A stretch of DNA of 64,000 bases from Pseudomonadota bacterium (lineage in GTDB: Bacteria; Bdellovibrionota; FAC87; UBA2466). The DNA lies in contig JAYUGC010000014.1 in the NCBI GenBank assembly GCA_043767805.1, positions 21,050-85,049 on the forward strand, in the 5' to 3' direction. Of this stretch, positions 1 to 57,013 are shown piece by piece. The notes below the pieces were generated by a model. That model searched no databases. It saw only the letters and a list, made by a program, of their open reading frames with translations, and was not told where the DNA came from. Positions within the stretch are counted from its first letter, which is position 1; each line of letters opens with the position of its first letter. The position numbers and the translations under genes were made by a program.

Positions 1-215
1 ATCGCGATCCTGGCAGGCCGCGCAGGCAAAAGCCTGAGCGGAAACCAGAGTCGAGACCAGCGTTATGAGAGCCAAGCGAAACATCGTACTCAAAGAGAAG
101 TACAAGTCCCGGGCCAGATTCCCAGGCTCGCCGTTTCCGCCCAGATTGACGTTTCTTAGGGCGTATTCCCCCCGAATACCCTCGACCCAAGCCTGTACAC
201 CCCCTGTCCAACCCC

Positions 216-239
216 AAAAGGTGTCTGGATACTTTTAGC
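216..239. repeat. Single copy of the dyad-symmetric motif AAAAGGTGTCTGGATACTTTTAGC upstream of the DUF354 gene; same motif family as the 22449-22663 cluster
   Basis: Direct sequence match to the repeats at 22449-22474 and related copies. The ends CTAAAAG/CTTTTAG are reverse complements of each other. Confidence 0.7.
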
Positions 240-272
240 CATCGCGGCGGGACGGGGGGCGGGGAGAGGGTT

Positions 273-11253: not shown

Positions 11254-12060
11254 TCAGGCAGCCTGGGAGGGGCTCTGGCCGGGGCGCTCGATCGATGAAT
11301 CCGGGTAAAAAATCGCATTCGTATCGGGGGTTTCGGTCCGCATCCAGCGATCCCAGAACGTGAAATAGAGGCCGTAGTTTCCGCGAAAGCGGGCGTGGTG
11401 GAGGCTGTGGTGGGTGGCATTGATGATCTGCCGCCCGAAGGAAGAGGTCTCAAATCGCCTCGGGTACATCTCATACCCCAAGTGATTGATGACCCCGAGG
11501 ACGGTCATCCCCATGAGGAAAACGAGCAGAACGGCGAGGTGGGTCGGCACGAGCCAGACCAGCCCGGGGAGGACGATTGCCTGAATGAGGGCTTCCCACG
11601 GATGAAAAGAGAACGCGGCCCAAGGGGTGGGGTTGTGCGATTCGTGGTGAACGAGATGCACGCGCCGAAATAGCGCCGGGTGATGGATCCAGCGGTGAGT
11701 CCAATAAAAATACGTTTCGTGAAGGAGCATTAGACACGGAAGACTCAAGAGGAGCCACGCCCAGCCGTACTCGTCCGGTTTCAAGTAGATCCGCAAATAA
11801 CCTAAGTTCCAGGCGTGGAGAAGGACCGCGCCCGACACCGCGAAAATCGCGGAGGTCACGAGTGACCACCCGATCTCTTTTTGCATCCTTTCCTTCGGCG
11901 CGTTTTGCGCGCGCAGCTTTCTCGCCGAGGGAACCCCGCGCTTATAGAAGAGCCAGTAGAAGGCGCCCGCGAAGCAAAAATAGCGAGCCGTCAGGATGGT
12001 GAAAAGCACCATCGTGGTCTCCAGAAAGCCGGGCAGCTCGAATGGCAAAGGCGAAGGCAT
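11254..12060 (-). CDS. Fatty acid hydroxylase / sterol desaturase superfamily membrane protein
   Basis: Histidine boxes HRWIHH, HLVHHESH, HHSLHH. Multiple TM segments. Confidence 0.75.
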   Translation of the reverse strand: MPSPLPFELPGFLETTMVLFTILTARYFCFAGAFYWLFYKRGVPSARKLRAQNAPKERMQKEIGWSLVTSAIFAVSGAVLLHAWNLGYLRIYLKPDEYGWAWLLLSLPCLMLLHETYFYWTHRWIHHPALFRRVHLVHHESHNPTPWAAFSFHPWEALIQAIVLPGLVWLVPTHLAVLLVFLMGMTVLGVINHLGYEMYPRRFETSSFGRQIINATHHSLHHARFRGNYGLYFTFWDRWMRTETPDTNAIFYPDSSIERPGQSPSQAA

Positions 12061-20677: not shown

Positions 20678-21051
20678 GGAGCGGTCTCCCGTTGAATGTG
20701 CGTGTCCCAGCCGAGGCGCTTGCGAATGGCTGGGTCAGAGTAATAAAGCGTGTAGAGAAACCCCTTCACACCCAGATCGAGCTGTCTGAGGAGCGAGCCC
20801 ACGGGATCGGGAAAGCGAGAGGCGTGGCCCGCGAGCCAAAAGAGCGCCGCGATGGCCCAACTGGGCAGCCAAGCAAAAAGCTCGGCGAGATCGACGAGCT
20901 TTTTGCGATCGCCCCCGGGTAAATAGGCGAGCATGCGATCGACTTCTCGAATGAGACCGCTTTGCGAGAAAGACGGAAGTCCTTCCGTTCCCGGCACGAG
21001 AAGATCGCCGGCTTTCTCCATTCCGCGTGTCGCTTTGGGAGTGAGGATCAT
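20674..21051 (-). CDS. Small hypothetical protein (putative accessory subunit of the GMC oxidoreductase)
   Basis: 125 aa from the internal ATG that overlaps the GMC stop as ATGA. The longer ORF upstream would overlap the GMC gene. Confidence 0.45.
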   Translation of the reverse strand: MILTPKATRGMEKAGDLLVPGTEGLPSFSQSGLIREVDRMLAYLPGGDRKKLVDLAELFAWLPSWAIAALFWLAGHASRFPDPVGSLLRQLDLGVKGFLYTLYYSDPAIRKRLGWDTHIQRETAP

Positions 21052-22430
21052 TTGATTACCTCCGCGGCGGCCCGAAGGGACAAAGCTAAAATGGTGAGGG
21101 ATGGGTTTAAGCCAGGGGCACTCGGAAAGACGGAGGAATCGGCGGAGTAGACGTGCTTTTCGCCGTGGAGTCTGAAGTCGGCGCCGACCACAGACGTTTT
21201 CGGATCTCTCCCCAGCGCGCATCCACCCATCAGATGAAGCCCGATGGTTACGCGGCCGGGGAGAATCTGCCGGGCGCCGGTCGACCGAAAAATGCGGGAG
21301 ATGGCGTTCATGCCGGCGGCTCGCCTGCGCAAATCTTCCGCGTTCCAGTTTTTATCGACGACCGTAGCGCCTCCCGGGCCAACTCGAATCTGACCGGCGT
21401 TCGTGTCTCGCACGGCCACTTCGATGCACGCGAAATGGCGAAGGCGAGTCATCATCGTCTGATGGGCTTTGCCAGCTTGGGGCAAGAGCATCGCGAGGCC
21501 CACGGGCGGCGCGAAAACATTTTCGAGTTTGAAGCCTTGGCGGCGAAACCCCGGGTCATCGGATTTCATCGTCTGAAAAGATCCCCGAAAGGCATCGACG
21601 GGCTCGTCGTAGAGCGCGAGCACCATCTCTTGCGGGTGGGTGTAGAAGCCCGTGCCGGTCGCGGGAAGTTTATCCGCGTACCCCGACTGCAAGAGCAACT
21701 TGCTATTGCCGATGGCGCCGCCCGCAAGAATGAGTCTCCGGCCCGAAAAGTGGGCGAGCGTCCCGTCTTTCAAGCGGACGTGCACTTCGGCGCCGTCGTC
21801 ATCGGAGCGCACGCCAAGCACTTCGGTTTCCGCGTAGAGCTCTAGTCCTGCTTCGAGCGCGTGCTTGAGCGTCGTGACGGGGGTGCTTTGCTTGCTGTCC
21901 AGCGGACAGCCTTGCAGGCACTCGATGCAATCGTTGCCTTCCTCGTTCTTACAATCCTTCTGAGCGCGGCGGAGGGCGGCCGCTTGATACCCGTTCCTGC
22001 GGAATCCCTCGTCGAAAATGCGCGCGTTCCGGTTTCGCTTTGAGCTTGGGATCGTTTGGAGCGAAAGCTGGGCTTCCGCTTTCTCGTACCAGGGGGCCAT
22101 TTCGCGCGGAGAAAAGAGAGAGGTGCCAGAAAGAGCTTCCCACTCATCCAAAGCGAGAGCATCGAAGCGATCGGCCAGCGCCTGGTTGACGATGGTGCCG
22201 CCGCCGACGGCTTTGGGCCGGAGGAGACCGAGGTCGGCCCGCCGGTTCAACTCGATTCCGCCCGCCCAATAGAGCTGGCTACTCGCGTCGATTTCCTCGC
22301 GGGGGTAGGTGGCCGCGGTGAAATGCTTGCCCGCTTCAAACAGCGCGCATTTGAGGCCCGCGCGACAAAGCTCTTGAGCAAAGGCGGAGCCCGAAACCCC
22401 GGACCCCACGATAAGGGCATCATAGCGCAC
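21048..22430 (-). CDS. GMC-family FAD-dependent oxidoreductase (choline/cholesterol-oxidase-like)
   Basis: N-terminal Rossmann YDALIVGSGVSGSAFAQELCRAGLKCALFEAG. About 460 aa. Typical GMC C-terminal domain. Confidence 0.8.
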   Translation of the reverse strand: MRYDALIVGSGVSGSAFAQELCRAGLKCALFEAGKHFTAATYPREEIDASSQLYWAGGIELNRRADLGLLRPKAVGGGTIVNQALADRFDALALDEWEALSGTSLFSPREMAPWYEKAEAQLSLQTIPSSKRNRNARIFDEGFRRNGYQAAALRRAQKDCKNEEGNDCIECLQGCPLDSKQSTPVTTLKHALEAGLELYAETEVLGVRSDDDGAEVHVRLKDGTLAHFSGRRLILAGGAIGNSKLLLQSGYADKLPATGTGFYTHPQEMVLALYDEPVDAFRGSFQTMKSDDPGFRRQGFKLENVFAPPVGLAMLLPQAGKAHQTMMTRLRHFACIEVAVRDTNAGQIRVGPGGATVVDKNWNAEDLRRRAAGMNAISRIFRSTGARQILPGRVTIGLHLMGGCALGRDPKTSVVGADFRLHGEKHVYSADSSVFPSAPGLNPSLTILALSLRAAAEVIK

Positions 22431-22448
22431 GCGCCTATTCTAACGCGC

Positions 22449-22663
22449 TAAAAGGTGTGTGGATACTTTTAGCTAGGCAATTGCCTTTTGGAAATCAAGA
22501 GCCAATAGGGCGCACGCGCCGTTATTTTGGCTAAAAGTATCCACACACCTTTTAGCCCCCCAAAAGGGCCCTGGATACTTTTAGCCAGCGCGGGCATGCC
22601 GCTTGCCCGTCTAAAAGTGTCCACACACTTTTTAGACGCTTAATGTGTCCAGACACCTTTTAG
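22449..22663. repeat. Five copies (both orientations) of a 24-26 bp dyad-symmetric motif CTAAAAGGTGTGTGGATACTTTTAGC in a 229-bp intergenic region
   Basis: Copies at 22449-22474 (+), 22530-22556 (inverted), 22561-22586 (+, degenerate), 22611-22635 (inverted) and 22645-22663 (inverted, partial). Also a GGCAATTGCC palindrome at 22477-22486. Confidence 0.8.
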
Positions 22664-23928
22664 AAGTCGGCGAGGGTGATGTTGGCGAGATTGATCTTGT
22701 TGGCGAAGACGGAATAGCAGAGGTAGGCCGCGAGGCACTTGCGGTTCTCGAGCCACGGCGGTTCGTACAGCGGATTTTTGATGAAGCCAGTCGCGAAGAA
22801 CGGCTCGAGCTGAACGATGTCGGCGAGAGTGAATCGCCCGGCGAAGAGATGCTCGGCGTAGTGAAACTTATTGGCTTGAATCGCCTTGCGCAAAAACGTG
22901 TGGGTGAAGATGAGGCCGCGCAGGTAGACGCAGTCCTTTGTAAACACCACGCCGCCCTTGGGATTGCCGCCGCGAAAAATGCGCGCGGCCGACTGGAAAC
23001 TTTCGGTATCTTCCTGTCCCGCCGCGAGAAAGTACTTAAACACTTCGATGAAGTCGGCGCCGTCCAAAGCCATCTGAATCCCGTGAATGCGCAAGGCAAT
23101 GCGCTCCAGACGGTTCAGGTCGATGGAAGAGGTGAAAAGCTCGGCGAAGGTGGCGATGCCTTCTTGAGTCGCCGTGGTGCGGGGCGATCCGAGCCCGAGA
23201 CTTGGCAAATTTTCCTGCGCCATCCCGTTCAAGGCGGTCAGCATGTGGACGTAGCCTTCATGATGGACGAGCTGGGGCAAATCATGCGCGGAAAAGCAGG
23301 TCGCGTCTCTAAGGCGCACCCGCTTCGGGCCCGCCGCGGCTTTGGAGGCGAGCTTCGGATCGACGATAATCTCGATCTTGTGATGCTTAAAGAAGGGAAC
23401 GAGCTCTTTTCTGAGAGTCTCCGCCGCTTGCTCCGCGGGGATGCAATATTCCCCGTCGTTTATCTTGTAGGCCGAGACAAAATCGCGCGTGCTCTCGATG
23501 AAGTAGTCGGCGGCTTGCAAGCTCGAGAGCTGATTGAGGCCGATGGCGTCGCTCGGTTTTCCGTAGAGCTCGATGGAGAGCTCGGTGAAAAGAGGCGTGC
23601 CCACGGCTCCGATGAGGCGCGCCGCCGTTACGTACGACTCGGCCGTCTGATAAATGTAGTTTCCGATGGGGTGGCGTTGATCCGCCTCCGCCATGATCGC
23701 TTTCAGCTCTTTGATGTTTTCCCGGTGATCGGGCGGGGTGTACTCCACCCGCGGAATCCTGGGCTTTCCGGCGCGCCAGGATTTCACGAAAGCGGTGCTG
23801 CGCTCCTCGTCCCACGAGAGCGTCGTCAGAATCTTGATGGGCTTTGCGGCCGCCACCAATTTGCGATCGAGCTCGGTGAAGCGGGCGAGTTGCTTGGCGG
23901 CTTTTTCTTTGGGAAGGGCGGAAGTCAC
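22660..23928 (-). CDS. DUF1704-domain protein (QEGLA-motif family, putative Tyr/Phe-carboxypeptidase-like)
   Basis: 422 aa. Contains TTATQEGIATFAE, matching the QEG[LI]A signature of TIGR02421/DUF1704. Confidence 0.6.
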   Translation of the reverse strand: MTSALPKEKAAKQLARFTELDRKLVAAAKPIKILTTLSWDEERSTAFVKSWRAGKPRIPRVEYTPPDHRENIKELKAIMAEADQRHPIGNYIYQTAESYVTAARLIGAVGTPLFTELSIELYGKPSDAIGLNQLSSLQAADYFIESTRDFVSAYKINDGEYCIPAEQAAETLRKELVPFFKHHKIEIIVDPKLASKAAAGPKRVRLRDATCFSAHDLPQLVHHEGYVHMLTALNGMAQENLPSLGLGSPRTTATQEGIATFAELFTSSIDLNRLERIALRIHGIQMALDGADFIEVFKYFLAAGQEDTESFQSAARIFRGGNPKGGVVFTKDCVYLRGLIFTHTFLRKAIQANKFHYAEHLFAGRFTLADIVQLEPFFATGFIKNPLYEPPWLENRKCLAAYLCYSVFANKINLANITLADF

Positions 23929-23977: not shown

Positions 23978-24244
23978 TCAGAGAGGGGCGGCGTTCGGCG
24001 GAACGTCTCCGCTTCCCTCATCGCCTTCGTCAAAAACTTCGGGCGGAATGGTCTCCATGTCCTCTCCCACGTCGGACGGGTACGTGACGGACGGCGCGGC
24101 CTCGAGCGGCTGACCCCAAGCGGGGAAAATCACGTGGAGGAAAACGCCTCCAAAAATGAGAATCACCGCGATTAACACTCCGATGAGCGTGTTGCGCTGC
24201 TGCTTAGAAAGTTTGGAAGCCGGGGGCGATTTGCCGTCGATCAT
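23978..24244 (-). CDS. Small membrane protein with acidic/Pro-rich C-terminal tail (hypothetical)
   Basis: 88 aa from internal ATG (MIDGK...). One TM helix LIGVLIAVILIFGGVFLHVIF. The 5' two-thirds of the 343-aa track ORF is antisense to the hutG-like gene and rejected. Confidence 0.35.
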   Translation of the reverse strand: MIDGKSPPASKLSKQQRNTLIGVLIAVILIFGGVFLHVIFPAWGQPLEAAPSVTYPSDVGEDMETIPPEVFDEGDEGSGDVPPNAAPL

Positions 24245-24307
24245 GAAGGGGACAGCGTAGCCGAAGGGTCGGCGCTTGGAAAGTTCCCATCCCCGGGGGT
24301 AAACTCT

Positions 24308-25135
24308 TTGGCTGTGGCAACCAACGATCCCTTTTTCGTATCCCAGCCCGTCTCGGGCATTCCCATCCTGCTGAGCGTCCCTCATTGCGGGGTGGAGTTT
24401 CCCCCTGAAGTCGCGGCGAAGATTCGCCCGCGCTACGTGGAAAATCCCGAGGACACCGACTGGTTCGTGCACGACCTCTACAATTTCGCCACAGACATGG
24501 GAATTACCACGTTGCACGCCCGTTATAGCCGGTACGTGGTGGACCTGAACCGGGACCCGGAAGGGCAACCGCTCTATAAGGATGGTCGGCAAGAGACCGA
24601 GCTGATGCCCACCCGATCGTTCGCGGGCGAGCCGCTCTACGACGGCGCGGCACCGGACGCGGCCGAGCAGAAGCGGAGAGTCGCCGCTTACTATCGCCCC
24701 TACCATGACAAGCTCCGCGGGCTTCTCGCCGAGATGAAAAAGAAGTTCGGCGTGGTACTTTTGTACGACGCTCATTCCATCGTGCGTTTCGTGCCGACGA
24801 TCCGGCCGACTCCGTTTCCGGATCTCATTTTGGGAGATCAGAGGGGCCGCACCGCGGACGCCCGGATCATTCAGACGGCGGTGGATAGCCTTCAAGCGGG
24901 CGGCCGCTATGAGCTTTCTCACAACGATCCCTTTCAGGGTGGCTACATCACGCGCCACTACGGCCAGCCTTTCGCGGGCGTGCATGCGTTGCAGCTCGAG
25001 ATGTCTCAAGATGTTTACATGGAAGGCGGCAAGCTCGATACCAAGAAAGCGGAGCCGCTCCGCGCGGTGCTCAAGACGACGCTGGAGCGCCTCGCCGAAG
25101 GTATCCAGGGCTTTGGATCGAGGCGTGCGCGATGA
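24308..25135 (+). CDS. hutG: N-formylglutamate amidohydrolase family protein
   Basis: 275 aa. ILLSVPHCGVEFPPEV resembles the PHsG motif of the FGase family (PF05013). Confidence 0.65.
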   Translation: MAVATNDPFFVSQPVSGIPILLSVPHCGVEFPPEVAAKIRPRYVENPEDTDWFVHDLYNFATDMGITTLHARYSRYVVDLNRDPEGQPLYKDGRQETELMPTRSFAGEPLYDGAAPDAAEQKRRVAAYYRPYHDKLRGLLAEMKKKFGVVLLYDAHSIVRFVPTIRPTPFPDLILGDQRGRTADARIIQTAVDSLQAGGRYELSHNDPFQGGYITRHYGQPFAGVHALQLEMSQDVYMEGGKLDTKKAEPLRAVLKTTLERLAEGIQGFGSRRAR

Positions 25136-28132: not shown

Positions 28133-28204
28133 TGGGGCGTAGAAAAGCGGTAATTCACTGGATTTTGATTCCAGCATTCCCAGGTTCGAATCCTGGCGCC
28201 CCAA
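28133..28204 (+). tRNA. tRNA-Gln (anticodon UUG)
   Basis: Cloverleaf: acceptor TGGGGCG/CGCCCCA, anticodon stem CTGGA/TCCAG with loop TTTTGAT, T-arm CCAGGTTCGAATCCTGG. Closely matches E. coli tRNA-Gln(UUG). Confidence 0.9.
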
Positions 28205-44310: not shown

Positions 44311-45216
44311 ATGTCTACCAGCCGCGTATCCACAGGCCAGATGTACACCAACGCTCAACAGCACGTGGCCTCGGCCCGTGACAAAGAGCAGCTCTCGGCT
44401 GAGAAAACGTCGACTAATAAACAGATCAATCGCCCCAGCGAAGACCCCGCCGGCTGGATGCTCGCCAACACTTTGAAAGACGATCTCAGCGTGCGCGAAA
44501 CGCTGACCAAGAACGCTCAGGTCGCCAATCACGTATTGACCGCGACCGAGACTATTTTCGATCAGGCGCAACAGTACGTGAACCGCGCTTATGAGCTGGC
44601 CATCGGTAACTCCGGCACCGCCCTCGGCGGTCCCGTCGCTCGGCAGGGAGCGCTGACCGAAGTGCAGGGCATTTACGAAGGCTTGCTCCAGGCGCTCAAT
44701 TTTCGGTACGGAAGCCGCACGCTCATGGCCGGTCATCACAGCCAGGGACCGGCGTTCGATGCGAACGGAAATTTCGTGGGCGATAGCGGCGTGCTCGCCA
44801 TCGACATCGACAAGGAAACGCAAGTTCCGCTTACCATGTCCGCCGAGCGCCACATCCTCGGCATGGGCGAGAAAGGCGGCGTCAATATCGTTCAGACCTT
44901 TCACCGGCTGATGGACGGGCTAGGCACCGATGACTCCCAGATGATTCAGAGCACCTTGGAAGACATGAAGCGCGGGATCGAGCAGCTCTCCGCCGCGCGC
45001 GCCGAAGTGGGCACGCGCATGCAGAACATCGACCGTGCCTTGGGCCGCCACGCTTCCCATCTCATCAGCACGGCGGAGCAGGTTTCCAAGATCGAGGACG
45101 CGGATGCCATCAAGGCGTTCTCCGATCTCTCCCGCGATCAGACCATTCTCAAAGCCGCGATCTCCACCAGCGAGAAAATCCTCTCGCAAGACGCGGCCAG
45201 TATCTTCTTCAAGTAG
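44311..45216 (+). CDS. flgL: Flagellar hook-associated protein 3 FlgL
   Basis: Flagellin-like N-terminal (MSTSRVSTGQMYTNAQQH...) and C-terminal helices. Follows flgK with overlap. Confidence 0.75.
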   Translation: MSTSRVSTGQMYTNAQQHVASARDKEQLSAEKTSTNKQINRPSEDPAGWMLANTLKDDLSVRETLTKNAQVANHVLTATETIFDQAQQYVNRAYELAIGNSGTALGGPVARQGALTEVQGIYEGLLQALNFRYGSRTLMAGHHSQGPAFDANGNFVGDSGVLAIDIDKETQVPLTMSAERHILGMGEKGGVNIVQTFHRLMDGLGTDDSQMIQSTLEDMKRGIEQLSAARAEVGTRMQNIDRALGRHASHLISTAEQVSKIEDADAIKAFSDLSRDQTILKAAISTSEKILSQDAASIFFK

Positions 45217-45222
45217 GAACCC

Positions 45223-45417
45223 GCGCGTCCCGCGCGTTTCGATCCGGGCAGTCACTGGTTGCTGGATGCTGGACCGAGGTAGGCTATTTTGATCTTAGCC
45301 TCCCGCACTTCTCAAAGCGCGGTACTGGCGTTCACGGGCAGTCCGCAAGGGAGAGATCTACTAATGGATTACCTCGGTCCAGCAACCAGTGACCGGGCTG
45401 GATCGAACGCGCGGGTA
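45223..45417. repeat. About 195-bp imperfect palindromic element (about 45-bp inverted arms around an 88-nt core) between flgL and csrA
   Basis: Left arm CCCGCGCGTTTCGATCCGGGCAGTCACTGGTTGCTGGA[TGCTGGA]CCGAGGTA. The reverse complement of the right arm (45371-45417) is CCGCGCGTTCGATCCAGCCCGGTCACTGGTTGCTGGACCGAGGTA. Several GGA motifs in the core. Confidence 0.7.
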
Positions 45418-45537
45418 GCGCGGGGGCTCGATTCACGGCGGGGGATGTCATAAAAGATACTGAAACGGATGAAGATTTGCTTAAGTCCCAGGCGCTAGCT
45501 GCCGAGAAGATTGGTGAGCCAAGTGACGGCTTACCCC

Positions 45538-45768
45538 ATGCTTGTACTTACCCGCAAATTAGGTGAAACCATCGCAATCGACGACGATATCAAAATCGTC
45601 GTCGTTCAGATCAAAGGACGCCAAGTCCGATTAGGTATCGACGCCCCTCGTCATACTAAGATCCACCGCGAAGAGATTTACCTCGAGATTCAGGAGCAGA
45701 ACAAATCTGCCGCTGAGTCCCAACCCACCCAGCCAAAAAAAGTTGCTAAGCAAGTACGTGCCAGCTAA
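45538..45768 (+). CDS. csrA: Carbon storage regulator / translational repressor CsrA
   Basis: MLVLTRKLGETIAIDDDIKIVVVQIKGRQVRLGIDAPRHTKIHREEIY is the canonical CsrA sequence. Start at the internal ATG. Confidence 0.9.
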   Translation: MLVLTRKLGETIAIDDDIKIVVVQIKGRQVRLGIDAPRHTKIHREEIYLEIQEQNKSAAESQPTQPKKVAKQVRAS

Positions 45769-45810
45769 CATTCAAGCTGGATTTCCCAAATAAAATCAGG
45801 AGAGCTGGGG

Positions 45811-46356
45811 ATGCAAATCGAAACCACGCGTTTCGGGACAGTGACTGTTGAAGATACCGACGTCATCACGTTTCCCGAAGGGATGCTGGGCTTCTCGAAG
45901 ATCCACGAGTACGTGCTGATAGAGCGCACGGACGACTCGCTTTTTGTTTGGCTACAAGCCTTAAAAAAGCCGAGCGTGGCCTTCCCGCTCCTCGAGCCGC
46001 AAATTTTCGAAATGAACTTCCGGGTCGACATGGAAGAAGCGGATCGCAAGATCCTGAAACTCGATAAGCTGAAGTTCGCGAAGGTCTTCTCCATCGTGAC
46101 GATCCCCTCGGATCCCTCGAAGATGACGGCGAACCTGAAAGCTCCCATCGTCATCAATTTGAAAAAACGCTTGGCTCATCAAGTCATCCTGCATCAGCAG
46201 GAGTACCCGATCCGGCGTGCGATTTACGCCGAGCTGCAAAAGCATTGCGCGGCTTCCCACCGTTCGGTTTTCCCGGACGTGGACGCCCAGCCGGCGTACC
46301 AAGCCATCCACATCAGCGAACAGATGCCCAGCGAAGGCGTCGAGCTGCACCGCTAA
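45811..46356 (+). CDS. fliW: Flagellar assembly factor FliW (CsrA antagonist)
   Basis: MQIETTRFGTVTVEDTDVITFPEGMLGF is the FliW N-terminal signature. RBS AGGAGAG. About 30-aa C-terminal extension relative to typical FliW. Confidence 0.8.
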   Translation: MQIETTRFGTVTVEDTDVITFPEGMLGFSKIHEYVLIERTDDSLFVWLQALKKPSVAFPLLEPQIFEMNFRVDMEEADRKILKLDKLKFAKVFSIVTIPSDPSKMTANLKAPIVINLKKRLAHQVILHQQEYPIRRAIYAELQKHCAASHRSVFPDVDAQPAYQAIHISEQMPSEGVELHR

Positions 46357-54913: not shown

Positions 54914-55399
54914 CTACCGCTCGGCCGGCTGTTTGTTCATCGTCTTGTCCATCTTCAGAAGATGCTCCATCCGATAGAGCAAGACCTGCTCTTCGATGCC
55001 GTCTGAATAGTACGGCGTCCAGCCCGTATAAAAGTCCTGAAATCTCTCCAAATTCTTCACGACGCGAACCCGGGTCAGCGGCCGTTTGTCGTCGCCCTGA
55101 AGCTTTGCGAAATTAAAATCCATGGAATACCGGTACCGCTCGGGAAGCTCGATTTTCTCGGGATACTGAAACAGCAAATCGTTGTACGGCCCGTTGACGA
55201 CCTCCGTCGTAATGCGGCCCGTATCCTTGTTGCTGAGCTTCAGCGGGTAATCGGCCAAAGCCTTGAGGCTCGACGCCCAAAGCTCGTCGTAAGAACCGTC
55301 GTAAATGCGGGTATGAAACGGCTTGCGCGAAGGCGGCGTGGAACAGCCGGCGAAAACCACCGAAAAAAACAGAACCAAGAAGCCTAATCGAAGGTGCAT
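54914..55399 (-). CDS. Lipoprotein, hypothetical
   Basis: Internal ATG gives MHLRLGFLVLFFSVVFAGCS lipobox. 161 aa. Confidence 0.5.
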   Translation of the reverse strand: MHLRLGFLVLFFSVVFAGCSTPPSRKPFHTRIYDGSYDELWASSLKALADYPLKLSNKDTGRITTEVVNGPYNDLLFQYPEKIELPERYRYSMDFNFAKLQGDDKRPLTRVRVVKNLERFQDFYTGWTPYYSDGIEEQVLLYRMEHLLKMDKTMNKQPAER

Positions 55400-55710
55400 T
55401 ACGGAAAACGGTACCAGAAACCGGTGAAAAAAGGACCAAAGCCGTCGAGAAAACAACCGGCACTTCGTGTCATCCGGTCATGCAATGTGAGAGCGGCTTT
55501 CCGAGGTATTTGCGATCCTTGTTTCGAATTCGACGAAAATAGGGCGCCCAAACCCGCCGTAACCCCGTAAATCGACGATAAACGAACCTAAGAGCAACCT
55601 GCTGAAAATCTCCGAAAACTGAAAAGCCCGCCAAACGAACGCGCCCGCGAGCGTTCGATAAAACCGAGAAATGAGAAAAACCGACCATAAAAACAGGTTC
55701 CGAAGTCCGA

Positions 55711-55750
55711 TTTATTAGTTATAATTTTAGTTATCACTAATAAAAATAGG
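55711..55750. other. AT-rich segment with 8-bp inverted repeat (TTATTAGT...ACTAATAA) and TATAAT box, immediately upstream of the recombinase gene
   Basis: TTTATTAGTTATAATTTTAGTTATCACTAATAAAAATAGG in an otherwise 60% GC region. Confidence 0.5.
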
Positions 55751-55759
55751 CAATAAACG

Positions 55760-57013
55760 ATGGAACACACCTTCTTCAGCCTGAATCGTTTCTTTCGGTT
55801 TTTAGGGTTCGTTTCGCTTTTCGAGCGAGTCGCGTACCGAGTCACGCTCAAGCTGTCGGGCTGGCTACAGCGCAACGCGCAACACCGGTGGCTTTTAATC
55901 GTGGCTTTGCGCGAGGGGCAGTCCACCATGGCTATTTCGCCTTTTATCGGCGAGGCCAACGGTATTAGTGGAGAATCAAAAGGCTCGTATAACTTCGAAT
56001 ACGAGAAGGCATTGAAAACGCCTTTGCAGCTGCAGAGACACACCGACACGTCGCACGAAAATGCGGCGCTCGTTTCTTTGCCGTCCTGGGCGAGAGAGAT
56101 TCAGCCGTTTTTACAGAATCAGTTGAGCGAGCACACGCGTCGGGCTTACGAGACCGACCTGCGTCAGTTCTTTTTGTTCCTGGAAGGCCGTCTCGACCCT
56201 CACAAGCTCGATACTTTGCGGCCCGAGCATCTCATTTTGTTCCGGAAATCCCTCGAGGAGGGGCGGGTGACCGGAAAACCCATGGCGAAGTCCTCCATCA
56301 ATCGAAAGCTCGCCGTGGTGAAGAGCTTTTTGAACTGGCTGCGCTTAAACCGGGTGATTCAGGAGAATCCGGGCCAGCTGGTCAAAGGCTATCCCCAGAC
56401 TCAAGAATCGGGCTTGAACGGGCTCTCCGATCTGGAGGCCCGTCGCATTCTGGATCTTCCCGATCGCCACTCCAAGTCAGGCGCTTTGCACCAAGCCATT
56501 CTCCACGTTCTACTCTATCTTGGGCTTCGCAAGGGCGAGCTCATTGGTTTGAAGGTGGGAGACTGGGATACGGAGCGTGGAACCGCGGTATTCAAGGTGC
56601 GGGGGAAGGGCCATCGCGTTCGCATCTTGCCGCTCACCGCCTCCGTGCGCGCGGCGCTCGATCATTATTTCTGGGTCTGTGGCCGTAGCCACAGCGAGAA
56701 AGAGGCGCCTCTCTTCATGCCGACGAAAAACCCGCGCTCAGGAAAGCTCGAGAAGCCGCTCAATCCGAACTCGATTACCTATCTCGTCGCTCGCTACGCG
56801 AAGAAGGCAGGCGTCTTGAAGAAGGTCTCCCCGCACTCTTGCCGCGCCACCTGCATCTCCAATGCGCTCGACAGGAAAGCCACTCAGCGAAGCGTGCAGC
56901 ATCTGGCGGGATGGTCCACGCCTCTCATGATTCAACGCTACGACAAGCGCCGCGAGGATTTGAAGAACTCCGCCGCCTTCCTCGTCGACTACCAAGAAAC
57001 CCACGCCTCCTAG
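55760..57013 (+). CDS. Tyrosine-type site-specific recombinase/integrase (phage-integrase family)
   Basis: Core-binding domain (TRRAYETDLRQFFLFL). Catalytic domain residues LGLRKGEL (Arg), HSCRATCISNA (H-x-x-R), LAGWSTPLMIQRYDK (catalytic Tyr). Confidence 0.8.
   Translation: MEHTFFSLNRFFRFLGFVSLFERVAYRVTLKLSGWLQRNAQHRWLLIVALREGQSTMAISPFIGEANGISGESKGSYNFEYEKALKTPLQLQRHTDTSHENAALVSLPSWAREIQPFLQNQLSEHTRRAYETDLRQFFLFLEGRLDPHKLDTLRPEHLILFRKSLEEGRVTGKPMAKSSINRKLAVVKSFLNWLRLNRVIQENPGQLVKGYPQTQESGLNGLSDLEARRILDLPDRHSKSGALHQAILHVLLYLGLRKGELIGLKVGDWDTERGTAVFKVRGKGHRVRILPLTASVRAALDHYFWVCGRSHSEKEAPLFMPTKNPRSGKLEKPLNPNSITYLVARYAKKAGVLKKVSPHSCRATCISNALDRKATQRSVQHLAGWSTPLMIQRYDKRREDLKNSAAFLVDYQETHAS

Follow-up and report, generated by a model that had tools for sequence, protein, structure and literature searches.

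The window (the whole 64-kb stretch of DNA analysed here) contains two minus-strand genes that are separated by a 229-nt gap. The upstream neighbour codes for a DUF1704/MATCAP (TIGR02421-like) protein (22660–23928; Pfam PF08014, E = 7.5e-105), and the downstream neighbour codes for a GMC oxidoreductase (21048–22430; Pfam GMC_oxred_N and GMC_oxred_C). As anticipated in the original prediction, this gap is filled by five copies of a short repeat. The predicted architecture of the motif also proved to be accurate: its arms are mutual reverse complements around an 11-nt core, and the five clustered copies, together with a distant sixth, occur in both orientations.

A search for CTAAAAG-N11-CTTTTAG with at most two mismatches returned six matches in the 64-kb window, where 0.10 would be expected, and six or more matches occurred in 0 of 100 shuffles. 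The six copies of the repeat consensus CYAAAAGGTGTSTGGAYACTTTTAG fall into a group of five (22448–22663) and a single distant copy, with the 25-nt motif located at 214–238, 22448–22472, 22531–22555, 22560–22584, 22611–22635, and 22639–22663. The same six sites were retrieved with a pattern based on the asymmetric core (GGTGTSTGGAYACTTTTAG, at most three mismatches; expected 0.01) in the orientations +,+,-,+,-,-. An nhmmer profile made from the copies detected exactly these sites and none further in 64 kb, and a left-side extension reaching 1,970 nt beyond the window (L018) contains no extra copy. The approximately 66 kb of genome examined hence hold six copies at two loci that are 22 kb apart. 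All six are intergenic with respect to the predicted genes, the only overlap being that of copy 5 with the DUF1704 stop codon. The G+C content is 59% for the window and 49% for the array.

Within the array, copies 1 to 5 are arranged in the orientations +,-,+,-,- with gaps of 58, 4, 26, and 3 nt between the 25-nt motifs, and one singleton (copy A) completes the set. The repeat units end in GCTAAAAG, CCCAAAAG or TCTAAAAG. Copy 1 (GCTAAAAGGTGTGTGGATACTTTTAGC, 22447–22473, plus strand) and copy 2 (22530–22556, minus strand) are the left and right arms of an inverted doublet. The reverse complement of copy 2 is identical to copy 1 (100% complementarity), and the two arms form a perfect 27-nt inverted repeat across a 56-nt spacer (22474–22529), which holds two small palindromes, GGCAATTGCC and GGCGCACGCGCC. 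Arms and spacer add up to 110 bp, and together with one C on each side they form a 112-bp unit (22446–22557) that is either present or absent as a whole (see below). Copy 3 (22558–22593, plus strand) measures 36 nt and belongs to the subtype of copy A. Its core is mutated in the window (GGGCC for GTGTC), but intact in L004, a contig from sample SRR22198355 that represents a very close strain. Copy 4 (CGTCTAAAAGTGTCCACACACTTTTTAGACG, 22608–22638, minus strand) forms an inverted pair with copy 3 across a 26-nt spacer. Copy 5 (22638–22664, minus strand) is the most degenerate; it follows copy 4 head-to-tail after a 3-nt gap and supplies the TAA stop codon of DUF1704 (22660–22662). Copy A, a solo 36-nt unit (CCCCAAAAGGTGTCTGGATACTTTTAGCCATCGCGG, 212–247, plus strand) recovered by the pattern, core, and profile searches, sits in a divergent spacer between a minus-strand gene for a secreted protein (start near 93) and a DUF354 gene (273–1286).

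As DNA, single copies are predicted to fold into modest hairpins (-1.2 to -6.2 kcal/mol) with weak, A/T-rich stems of 7–8 bp. Copy 1, for example, has an 8-bp stem (-4.9 kcal/mol), and copy 4, the best individual hairpin, has a stem of 10–11 bp with one bulge and a GTGG loop (-6.2 kcal/mol). Copies 1, 2, and 4 range from -4.5 to -6.2 kcal/mol with z between -3.5 and -6.3, and the degenerate copies A, 3, and 5 fold weakly. The doublet as single-stranded DNA adopts one long hairpin (-36.4 kcal/mol, z = -8.8). The transcribed strand of the whole spacer, folded as RNA, reaches -110.3 kcal/mol (z = -7.8), with copy 5 paired to copy 3, copy 2 paired to copy 1, and copy 4 folded on itself. A covariation test gave no two-sided or compensatory changes among only five distinct sequences, a sample that gives this test no power. 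Rfam returned nothing at gathering thresholds, and at permissive thresholds only sub-threshold matches to generic hairpins (miRNA precursors). We can also eliminate intrinsic terminators, since the stems are A/T-rich, there is no U-tract, and the two terminator-like matches correspond to the TTTT arm of the motif itself. The original prediction had already judged terminator arrays to be less likely, and this holds: no T-tract follows the copies.

A different structure was noticed elsewhere in the window. Positions 45220–45424 form an imperfect hairpin of about 205 nt with arm segments of 47 nt (77% complementary) and 32 nt (81%), which folds as RNA with -133.7 kcal/mol (z = -10.9) and has no match in Rfam. 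It lies between a gene of the flagellin family, probably flgL (ends at 45216), and an unannotated csrA just upstream of fliW. This small CsrA gene (45539–45769, plus strand), which we identified by reading the sequence, occupies a seemingly gene-free 594-nt gap directly upstream of fliW (45811–46356). The hairpin could be another MITE-like element, or a structured terminator or leader of the flagellar csrA–fliW module.

The two loci in relatives

The closest genome in the GTDB species set is the uncultured Pseudobdellovibrionaceae MAG CAZZHG01, with 83% amino acid identity in DUF1704. In three relatives with 83–88% amino acid identity, the spacer between the DUF1704 and GMC genes measures only 14–21 nt. 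According to gene coordinates, this spacer is 15 nt in P0002 (88%; JGI 3300071358) and 14 nt in P0003 (83%; JGI 3300071325). In L009 (83%), the GMC gene starts about 15–21 nt past the DUF1704 stop codon, and 21 kb of this relative contain no match to the motif. The stop codon of DUF1704 is TAG in the relatives, and the sequence beyond it is either unrelated or similar only in part. The 94% relative L019 also shows this TAG, followed by 23 nt and then a conserved TAGAAT, at which the contig stops; it contains no array. The spacer of P0121 (JGI 3300071358), a member of the same 90% protein cluster, is 139 nt long and represents a third length class. Apart from the window's own protein, no GMC variants above 81% identity were found. 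In 42 kb of a relative (L009 and L022), there are no short-range inverted repeats comparable to the array.

By this sequence comparison, the reconstructed ancestral state is a tight intra-operon junction, to which roughly 200 nt of repeats were added in the window's own lineage. The original prediction had placed the array in the promoter region of an 11-gene operon. This assignment does not hold: both flanking genes are on the minus strand and are 14–21 nt apart in relatives, so that the site is an intra-operon junction, not a promoter region. A scan of positions 22300–22800 found no sigma-70-like promoter. Absence of the motif upstream of the orthologous operon in relatives had been named beforehand as evidence against the prediction, and the motif is indeed absent at their DUF1704–GMC junction. 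For annotation, this means that the 229-nt gap is best described as a recent insertion into a tight DUF1704–GMC junction rather than as the promoter of the GMC operon, and that DUF1704, and probably also a small upstream gene, belong to the same transcription unit. This small gene is a conserved ORF of 88–89 residues without a family match (23978–24244, minus strand), which directly precedes DUF1704 and shares its strand; gene calling recovers it in L019 too (167–436). It is probably the first gene of the operon. The promoter would then fall in the spacer at 24245–24307, which is shared with a divergent FGase gene (24308–25135, plus strand).

Two further features of this junction were noted. 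A TTAGAAT/TAGAAT hexamer located 6–9 nt upstream of the GTG start codon of the GMC gene is kept in all four strains and relatives, despite the otherwise unconserved spacer (window: 22437–22443, TTAGAAT on the minus strand; L004: 47–53; L009: about 11276–11282; L019: 1780–1786). This hexamer may serve as the -10 box of a transcript that starts internally or is leaderless, or it may contribute to the context for translation initiation. In L019, the stretch right after the DUF1704 stop codon (1757–1786) reads CCAAAAGGTGCCAGTGCC, the first 10 nt of which are common with CCAAAAGGTG at the start of copy A and of copy 3 in L004. This stretch may represent an old copy that has decayed, or else a sequence preferred as a target.

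At the second locus, L022 and L023/L024 both retain the DUF354–DUF4423 (TIGR02147) pair together with the divergent upstream gene, with no copy of the motif in their orthologous spacers. The sixth copy was originally taken for a 5' site of the DUF354/TIGR02147 pair; its absence in two relatives that keep the pair shows that it is not a conserved one. The corresponding contig from the L004 sample begins inside DUF354. An observation of its own is the element GTACAAGTCCCRGGCCA (window: about 100–120; L022: 10013–10032), which is situated directly upstream of the minus-strand secreted-protein gene that starts near 93. It is common to the window and to the relative with 61% identity despite an otherwise diverged spacer, and may be a regulatory or leader element.

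Presence and absence between strains

Logan short-read contigs of SRR23617225 and SRR23617224 match the window at 100% identity and thus represent the same strain. The comparison with L004 is more informative: over 2,974 coding nt this contig has a single mismatch to the window, but window positions 22446–22557 (112 bp) are missing from it. The missing segment is exactly the 110-bp doublet with its perfect arms plus one C per side. The single proximal copy in L004 combines the left flank of copy 3 with the right flank of copy 1, a mosaic that is not obtainable by a single crossover between the copies of the window. Nor do the two copies share enough consecutive bases (14) for an assembly chimera at k = 31.

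The simplest reading of this difference is that L004 shows the empty site and that the window carries a recent insertion beside copy 3. This interpretation agrees with the outgroups and with the 27 of 27 identical arm positions. Formally, the difference could also reflect a precise deletion or excision; in either case the doublet behaves as a unit. In this single event, the segment that comes or goes has identical arms, and the solo copies 3 and 5 are degenerate. The comparison of window and L004, the sole pair of filled and empty sites, revealed no target-site duplication: the difference consists of 110 bp and the flanking Cs, with no direct repeat.

The same-strain assemblies point indirectly to additional copies. 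Contigs L001 and L002 end exactly at 22610 and L003 starts exactly at 22556, positions that coincide with repeat edges; other breaks in these assemblies occur only every 2–5 kb. Contigs in k = 31 graphs that break at repeat edges imply that the same 30-mers occur elsewhere with other flanks, which suggests further copies beyond the two loci.

Small differences between window and L004 are also clustered in the spacer. Relative to L004, positions 22568–22570 in the core of copy 3 have changed from ACA to GGC, creating GGGCCC, and positions 22433–22434 just upstream of the GMC start show a CG/GC swap. Set against one mismatch in 2,974 coding nt, these changes suggest locally raised mutation or gene conversion near the repeats.

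Origin of the repeats

The copies appear to descend from one another. Among seven copies, the 11-nt core is 90% identical and the arms are 94% identical, and the polarity of the core is fixed relative to the arms. Copy A and copy 3 of L004, 22 kb apart, are identical in 35 of 36 nt over CCCCAAAAGGTGTCTGGATACTTTTAGCCAKCGCGG, which includes flanks beyond the dyad. A core that is as conserved as the arms, together with near-identity across 22 kb, argues for copying and not for convergent binding sites; the operator of a dimeric protein would keep its half-sites, but not the spacer and the flanks.

We consider it likely that the repeats form a lineage-specific, REP/REPIN-like (BIME-like) family of short, non-autonomous, and non-coding mobile palindromes. 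A small REP- or MITE-like repeat family had been offered as an alternative in the original prediction, and this option fits the copies, their absence at both orthologous sites, the turnover of the doublet, and the contig breaks at repeat edges. Such elements would have been copied to new intergenic sites and would have piled up side by side into a BIME-like cluster. Successive insertions may thus have widened the DUF1704–GMC junction from 14–21 nt to 229 nt in this uncultured Pseudobdellovibrionaceae strain. In this scheme, copy 5 at the stop codon would be a decayed solo copy, copies 3 and 4 with their 26-nt spacer an inverted pair, and the doublet of copies 1 and 2 the most recent arrival. 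Transcribed as part of the operon, the array would give rise to RNA hairpins of high stability. As with REP/BIME elements elsewhere, such as those of E. coli, a likely consequence would be a change in the stability or processing of the DUF1704–GMC transcript, or in how translation of DUF1704 terminates, a by-product rather than a designed regulatory function. This is plausible because a hairpin-forming repeat starts at the DUF1704 stop codon.

Movement would presumably depend on a trans-acting transposase with its gene in another part of the genome. None of the 59 ORFs of the window that were scanned with Pfam codes for a transposase (Y1/RAYT or other), and the sole recombinase in the window is a tyrosine recombinase at 55.8–57.0 kb. 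Tentatively, we favour a hairpin-recognising HUH/Y1 enzyme (RAYT or IS200/IS605-type) as the likeliest mobiliser, given the hairpin ends and the lack of a visible target duplication. The tyrosine recombinase gene itself (55760–57013, phage-integrase family) is located at the edge of the kilobase with the lowest GC content (55000–56000; 50% versus 59% for the window) and is flanked by small ORFs without a family match. The only tRNA gene of the window (28133–28204) is not adjacent. This region may be an integrated element.

Exact-pattern scans returned 0 matches among GTDB species representatives. The same scans uncovered no family member in JGI metagenome contigs (four single matches in unrelated contigs with 35–48% GC, judged to be chance) and none in IMG/VR (two single matches, also chance). 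BLASTN of the whole array against plasmid and phage collections gave no match. These scans thus yielded no independent second genome with the family. One of the metagenome contigs with a chance match (L007, MPMD02468478.1; 41% GC, unrelated) contains four copies of a palindrome resembling AAAGTGTTTGGACACTTT at 255–275, 543–564, 1297–1317, and 1586–1606 (spacings of 289, 753, and 289 nt), apparently a repeat family of their own.

The main rival to movement by an HUH/Y1 enzyme is a classical MITE: an internally deleted insertion sequence of 110 bp, with 27-bp terminal inverted repeats as the recognition sites of a DDE transposase. Under this reading, solo copies would represent broken MITE ends. 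The doublet alone makes a reasonable MITE, being non-coding, 110 bp long, bounded by perfect 27-bp terminal inverted repeats, and present or absent as a unit between strains. Nonetheless we rate this explanation as improbable, because the one insertion that could be compared shows no target-site duplication and four of the six copies stand alone or are paired in other ways (spacers of 26, 4, and 3 nt). Furthermore, each arm is itself a hairpin, which, like the solo and oddly paired copies, is typical of REPs and unusual for MITE ends, and no insertion sequence with these ends was found in the window, in plasmids, or in phages.

A second alternative is that the array is not mobile but a selected RNA device (for mRNA stabilisation, processing, or attenuation, for example), which arose by local duplication and uncouples DUF1704 from GMC. 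The stable fold of the transcribed strand (-110.3 kcal/mol, z = -7.8) is consistent with this idea, and so is the position of the array between two cistrons: the classical REP/BIME mRNA stabilisers of E. coli are placed in the same way (reviewed in PMC3337134 and PMC3733652). Local duplication by itself, however, is insufficient to explain a near-identical 36-nt unit 22 kb away in an unrelated divergent spacer. The array is also unconserved in close relatives and variable between strains, compensatory changes are not seen, and without a U-tract there is no intrinsic terminator. We therefore regard a purpose-built RNA device as very improbable.

We give equally little credence to the proposal, made in the original prediction, that the repeats are operators for a dimeric factor such as the TIGR02147/DUF4423 HTH protein, with the GMC operon and the DUF354–TIGR02147 pair as its regulon. 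In its favour, the motif is a dyad, one copy is found in a divergent spacer 35 nt ahead of the DUF354 start, and the neighbouring TIGR02147 protein (267 residues) gave a weak match to an HTH. On the other hand, relatives that retain the genes, TIGR02147 among them, lack the motif at both orthologous sites, and the site at 22.5 kb is an intra-operon junction that was ancestrally 14–21 nt long. In addition, the dyad spacer (90%) is as conserved as the half-sites (94%), the copy number varies between strains that differ by one mismatch in 2,974 coding nt, and one copy overlaps a stop codon.

Other identities can be dismissed briefly: a sigma-54 promoter (TGGATAC-N-TTTTAGC) by a GG-to-GC distance of 11 instead of 12 (by inspection) and by absence of the motif in relatives; an integron attC site, also an imperfect palindrome of about 110 bp, by lack of an RYYYAAC/GTTRRRY core and a distance of 33 kb to the only tyrosine recombinase; a CRISPR array by the mixed orientations and the gaps of 58, 4, 26, and 3 nt; and DNA-uptake sequences by orientation, spacing, and length.

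Comparison with known repeat families

MITEs such as Correia/NEMIS of Neisseria, RUP, and ERIC resemble the doublet in length (about 100–150 bp), in their terminal inverted repeats of about 26 bp, in being non-coding, in their intergenic insertion, and in their co-transcription with neighbouring genes. Unlike the family described here, where no duplication is visible and solo copies dominate, MITEs usually create target-site duplications (TA in the case of Correia elements) and rarely leave functional-looking solo ends.

The REP/BIME elements of Enterobacteriaceae and Pseudomonas are closer relatives in organisation. They are short, extragenic, imperfect palindromes capable of forming stem-loops (20–40 nt in general, 25–36 nt in the present case), often located between co-directional operon genes, and specific in sequence to a species or lineage. 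REPs occur as singletons, as head-head and tail-tail dimers with spacers of 20–100 bp, and in clusters (PMC3733652). The window likewise holds a singleton, inverted dimers (with spacers of 26 and 56 nt), a head-to-tail pair, and a mosaic cluster, all of which are known from REPs (PMC3733652). The lack of a target duplication also agrees with what is published on REPs and REPINs (PMC3733652, PMC3337134, PMC3116915). In the REP superfamilies described so far, one end is typically marked by a conserved tetranucleotide, either GTAG or CGTC (PMC3733652). The present repeats have no such terminal tag; only copy 4 is flanked by CGTC...GACG. This absence places the family outside the GTAG- and CGTC-tagged superfamilies. 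The stem is also different: it is weak and A/T-rich here (CTAAAAG/CTTTTAG) and GC-rich in classical REPs. Finally, the host is represented by a Pseudobdellovibrionaceae MAG (Bdellovibrionota), of which about 66 kb with six copies at two loci were read; REPs are dispersed over the genome in high copy number. In the literature that we searched, no paper describes REPs, REPINs, or MITEs from Bdellovibrio-like bacteria. The kind of element is well known, and what we describe is a previously undescribed palindromic repeat family with strain-level turnover in an uncultured Pseudobdellovibrionaceae lineage. In practical terms, such repeats fragment short-read assemblies of these MAGs, as observed here, and are useful as strain markers. 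By analogy, they might also change operon expression by way of RNA hairpins.

The doublet finds its nearest counterpart in the REPINs of Pseudomonas fluorescens SBW25, which are mobilised by RAYT (PMC3116915, PMC3337134). A REPIN consists of two inverted REPs and a spacer, forms a hairpin, excises as a doublet, and is better conserved than REP singlets (PMC3337134). The hallmark of a replicating REPIN population is a spacer that is conserved across copies, and REPIN–RAYT systems have one RAYT gene (HUH/Y1 transposase, Pfam Y1_Tnp), present in single copy with the same repeats on its flanks. The window differs from SBW25 in that it contains no associated RAYT gene and shows only one copy of each doublet type. 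An active REPIN-like population in Bdellovibrionota, with an untagged, A/T-stemmed repeat and a RAYT-like or other hairpin-recognising HUH enzyme not yet linked to such repeats, is a speculative proposal that we find rather doubtful. If true, it would extend REPIN–RAYT-type systems beyond the lineages in which they have been characterised, with insertion events visible between strains whose coding sequences show about one difference per 3 kb. The doublet resembles the SBW25 elements in three ways: the inverted repeats and their spacer fold into one long hairpin, the doublet with its 27 of 27 identical arm positions is better conserved than the degenerate solo copies, and near-identical genomes either have the whole doublet or lack it.
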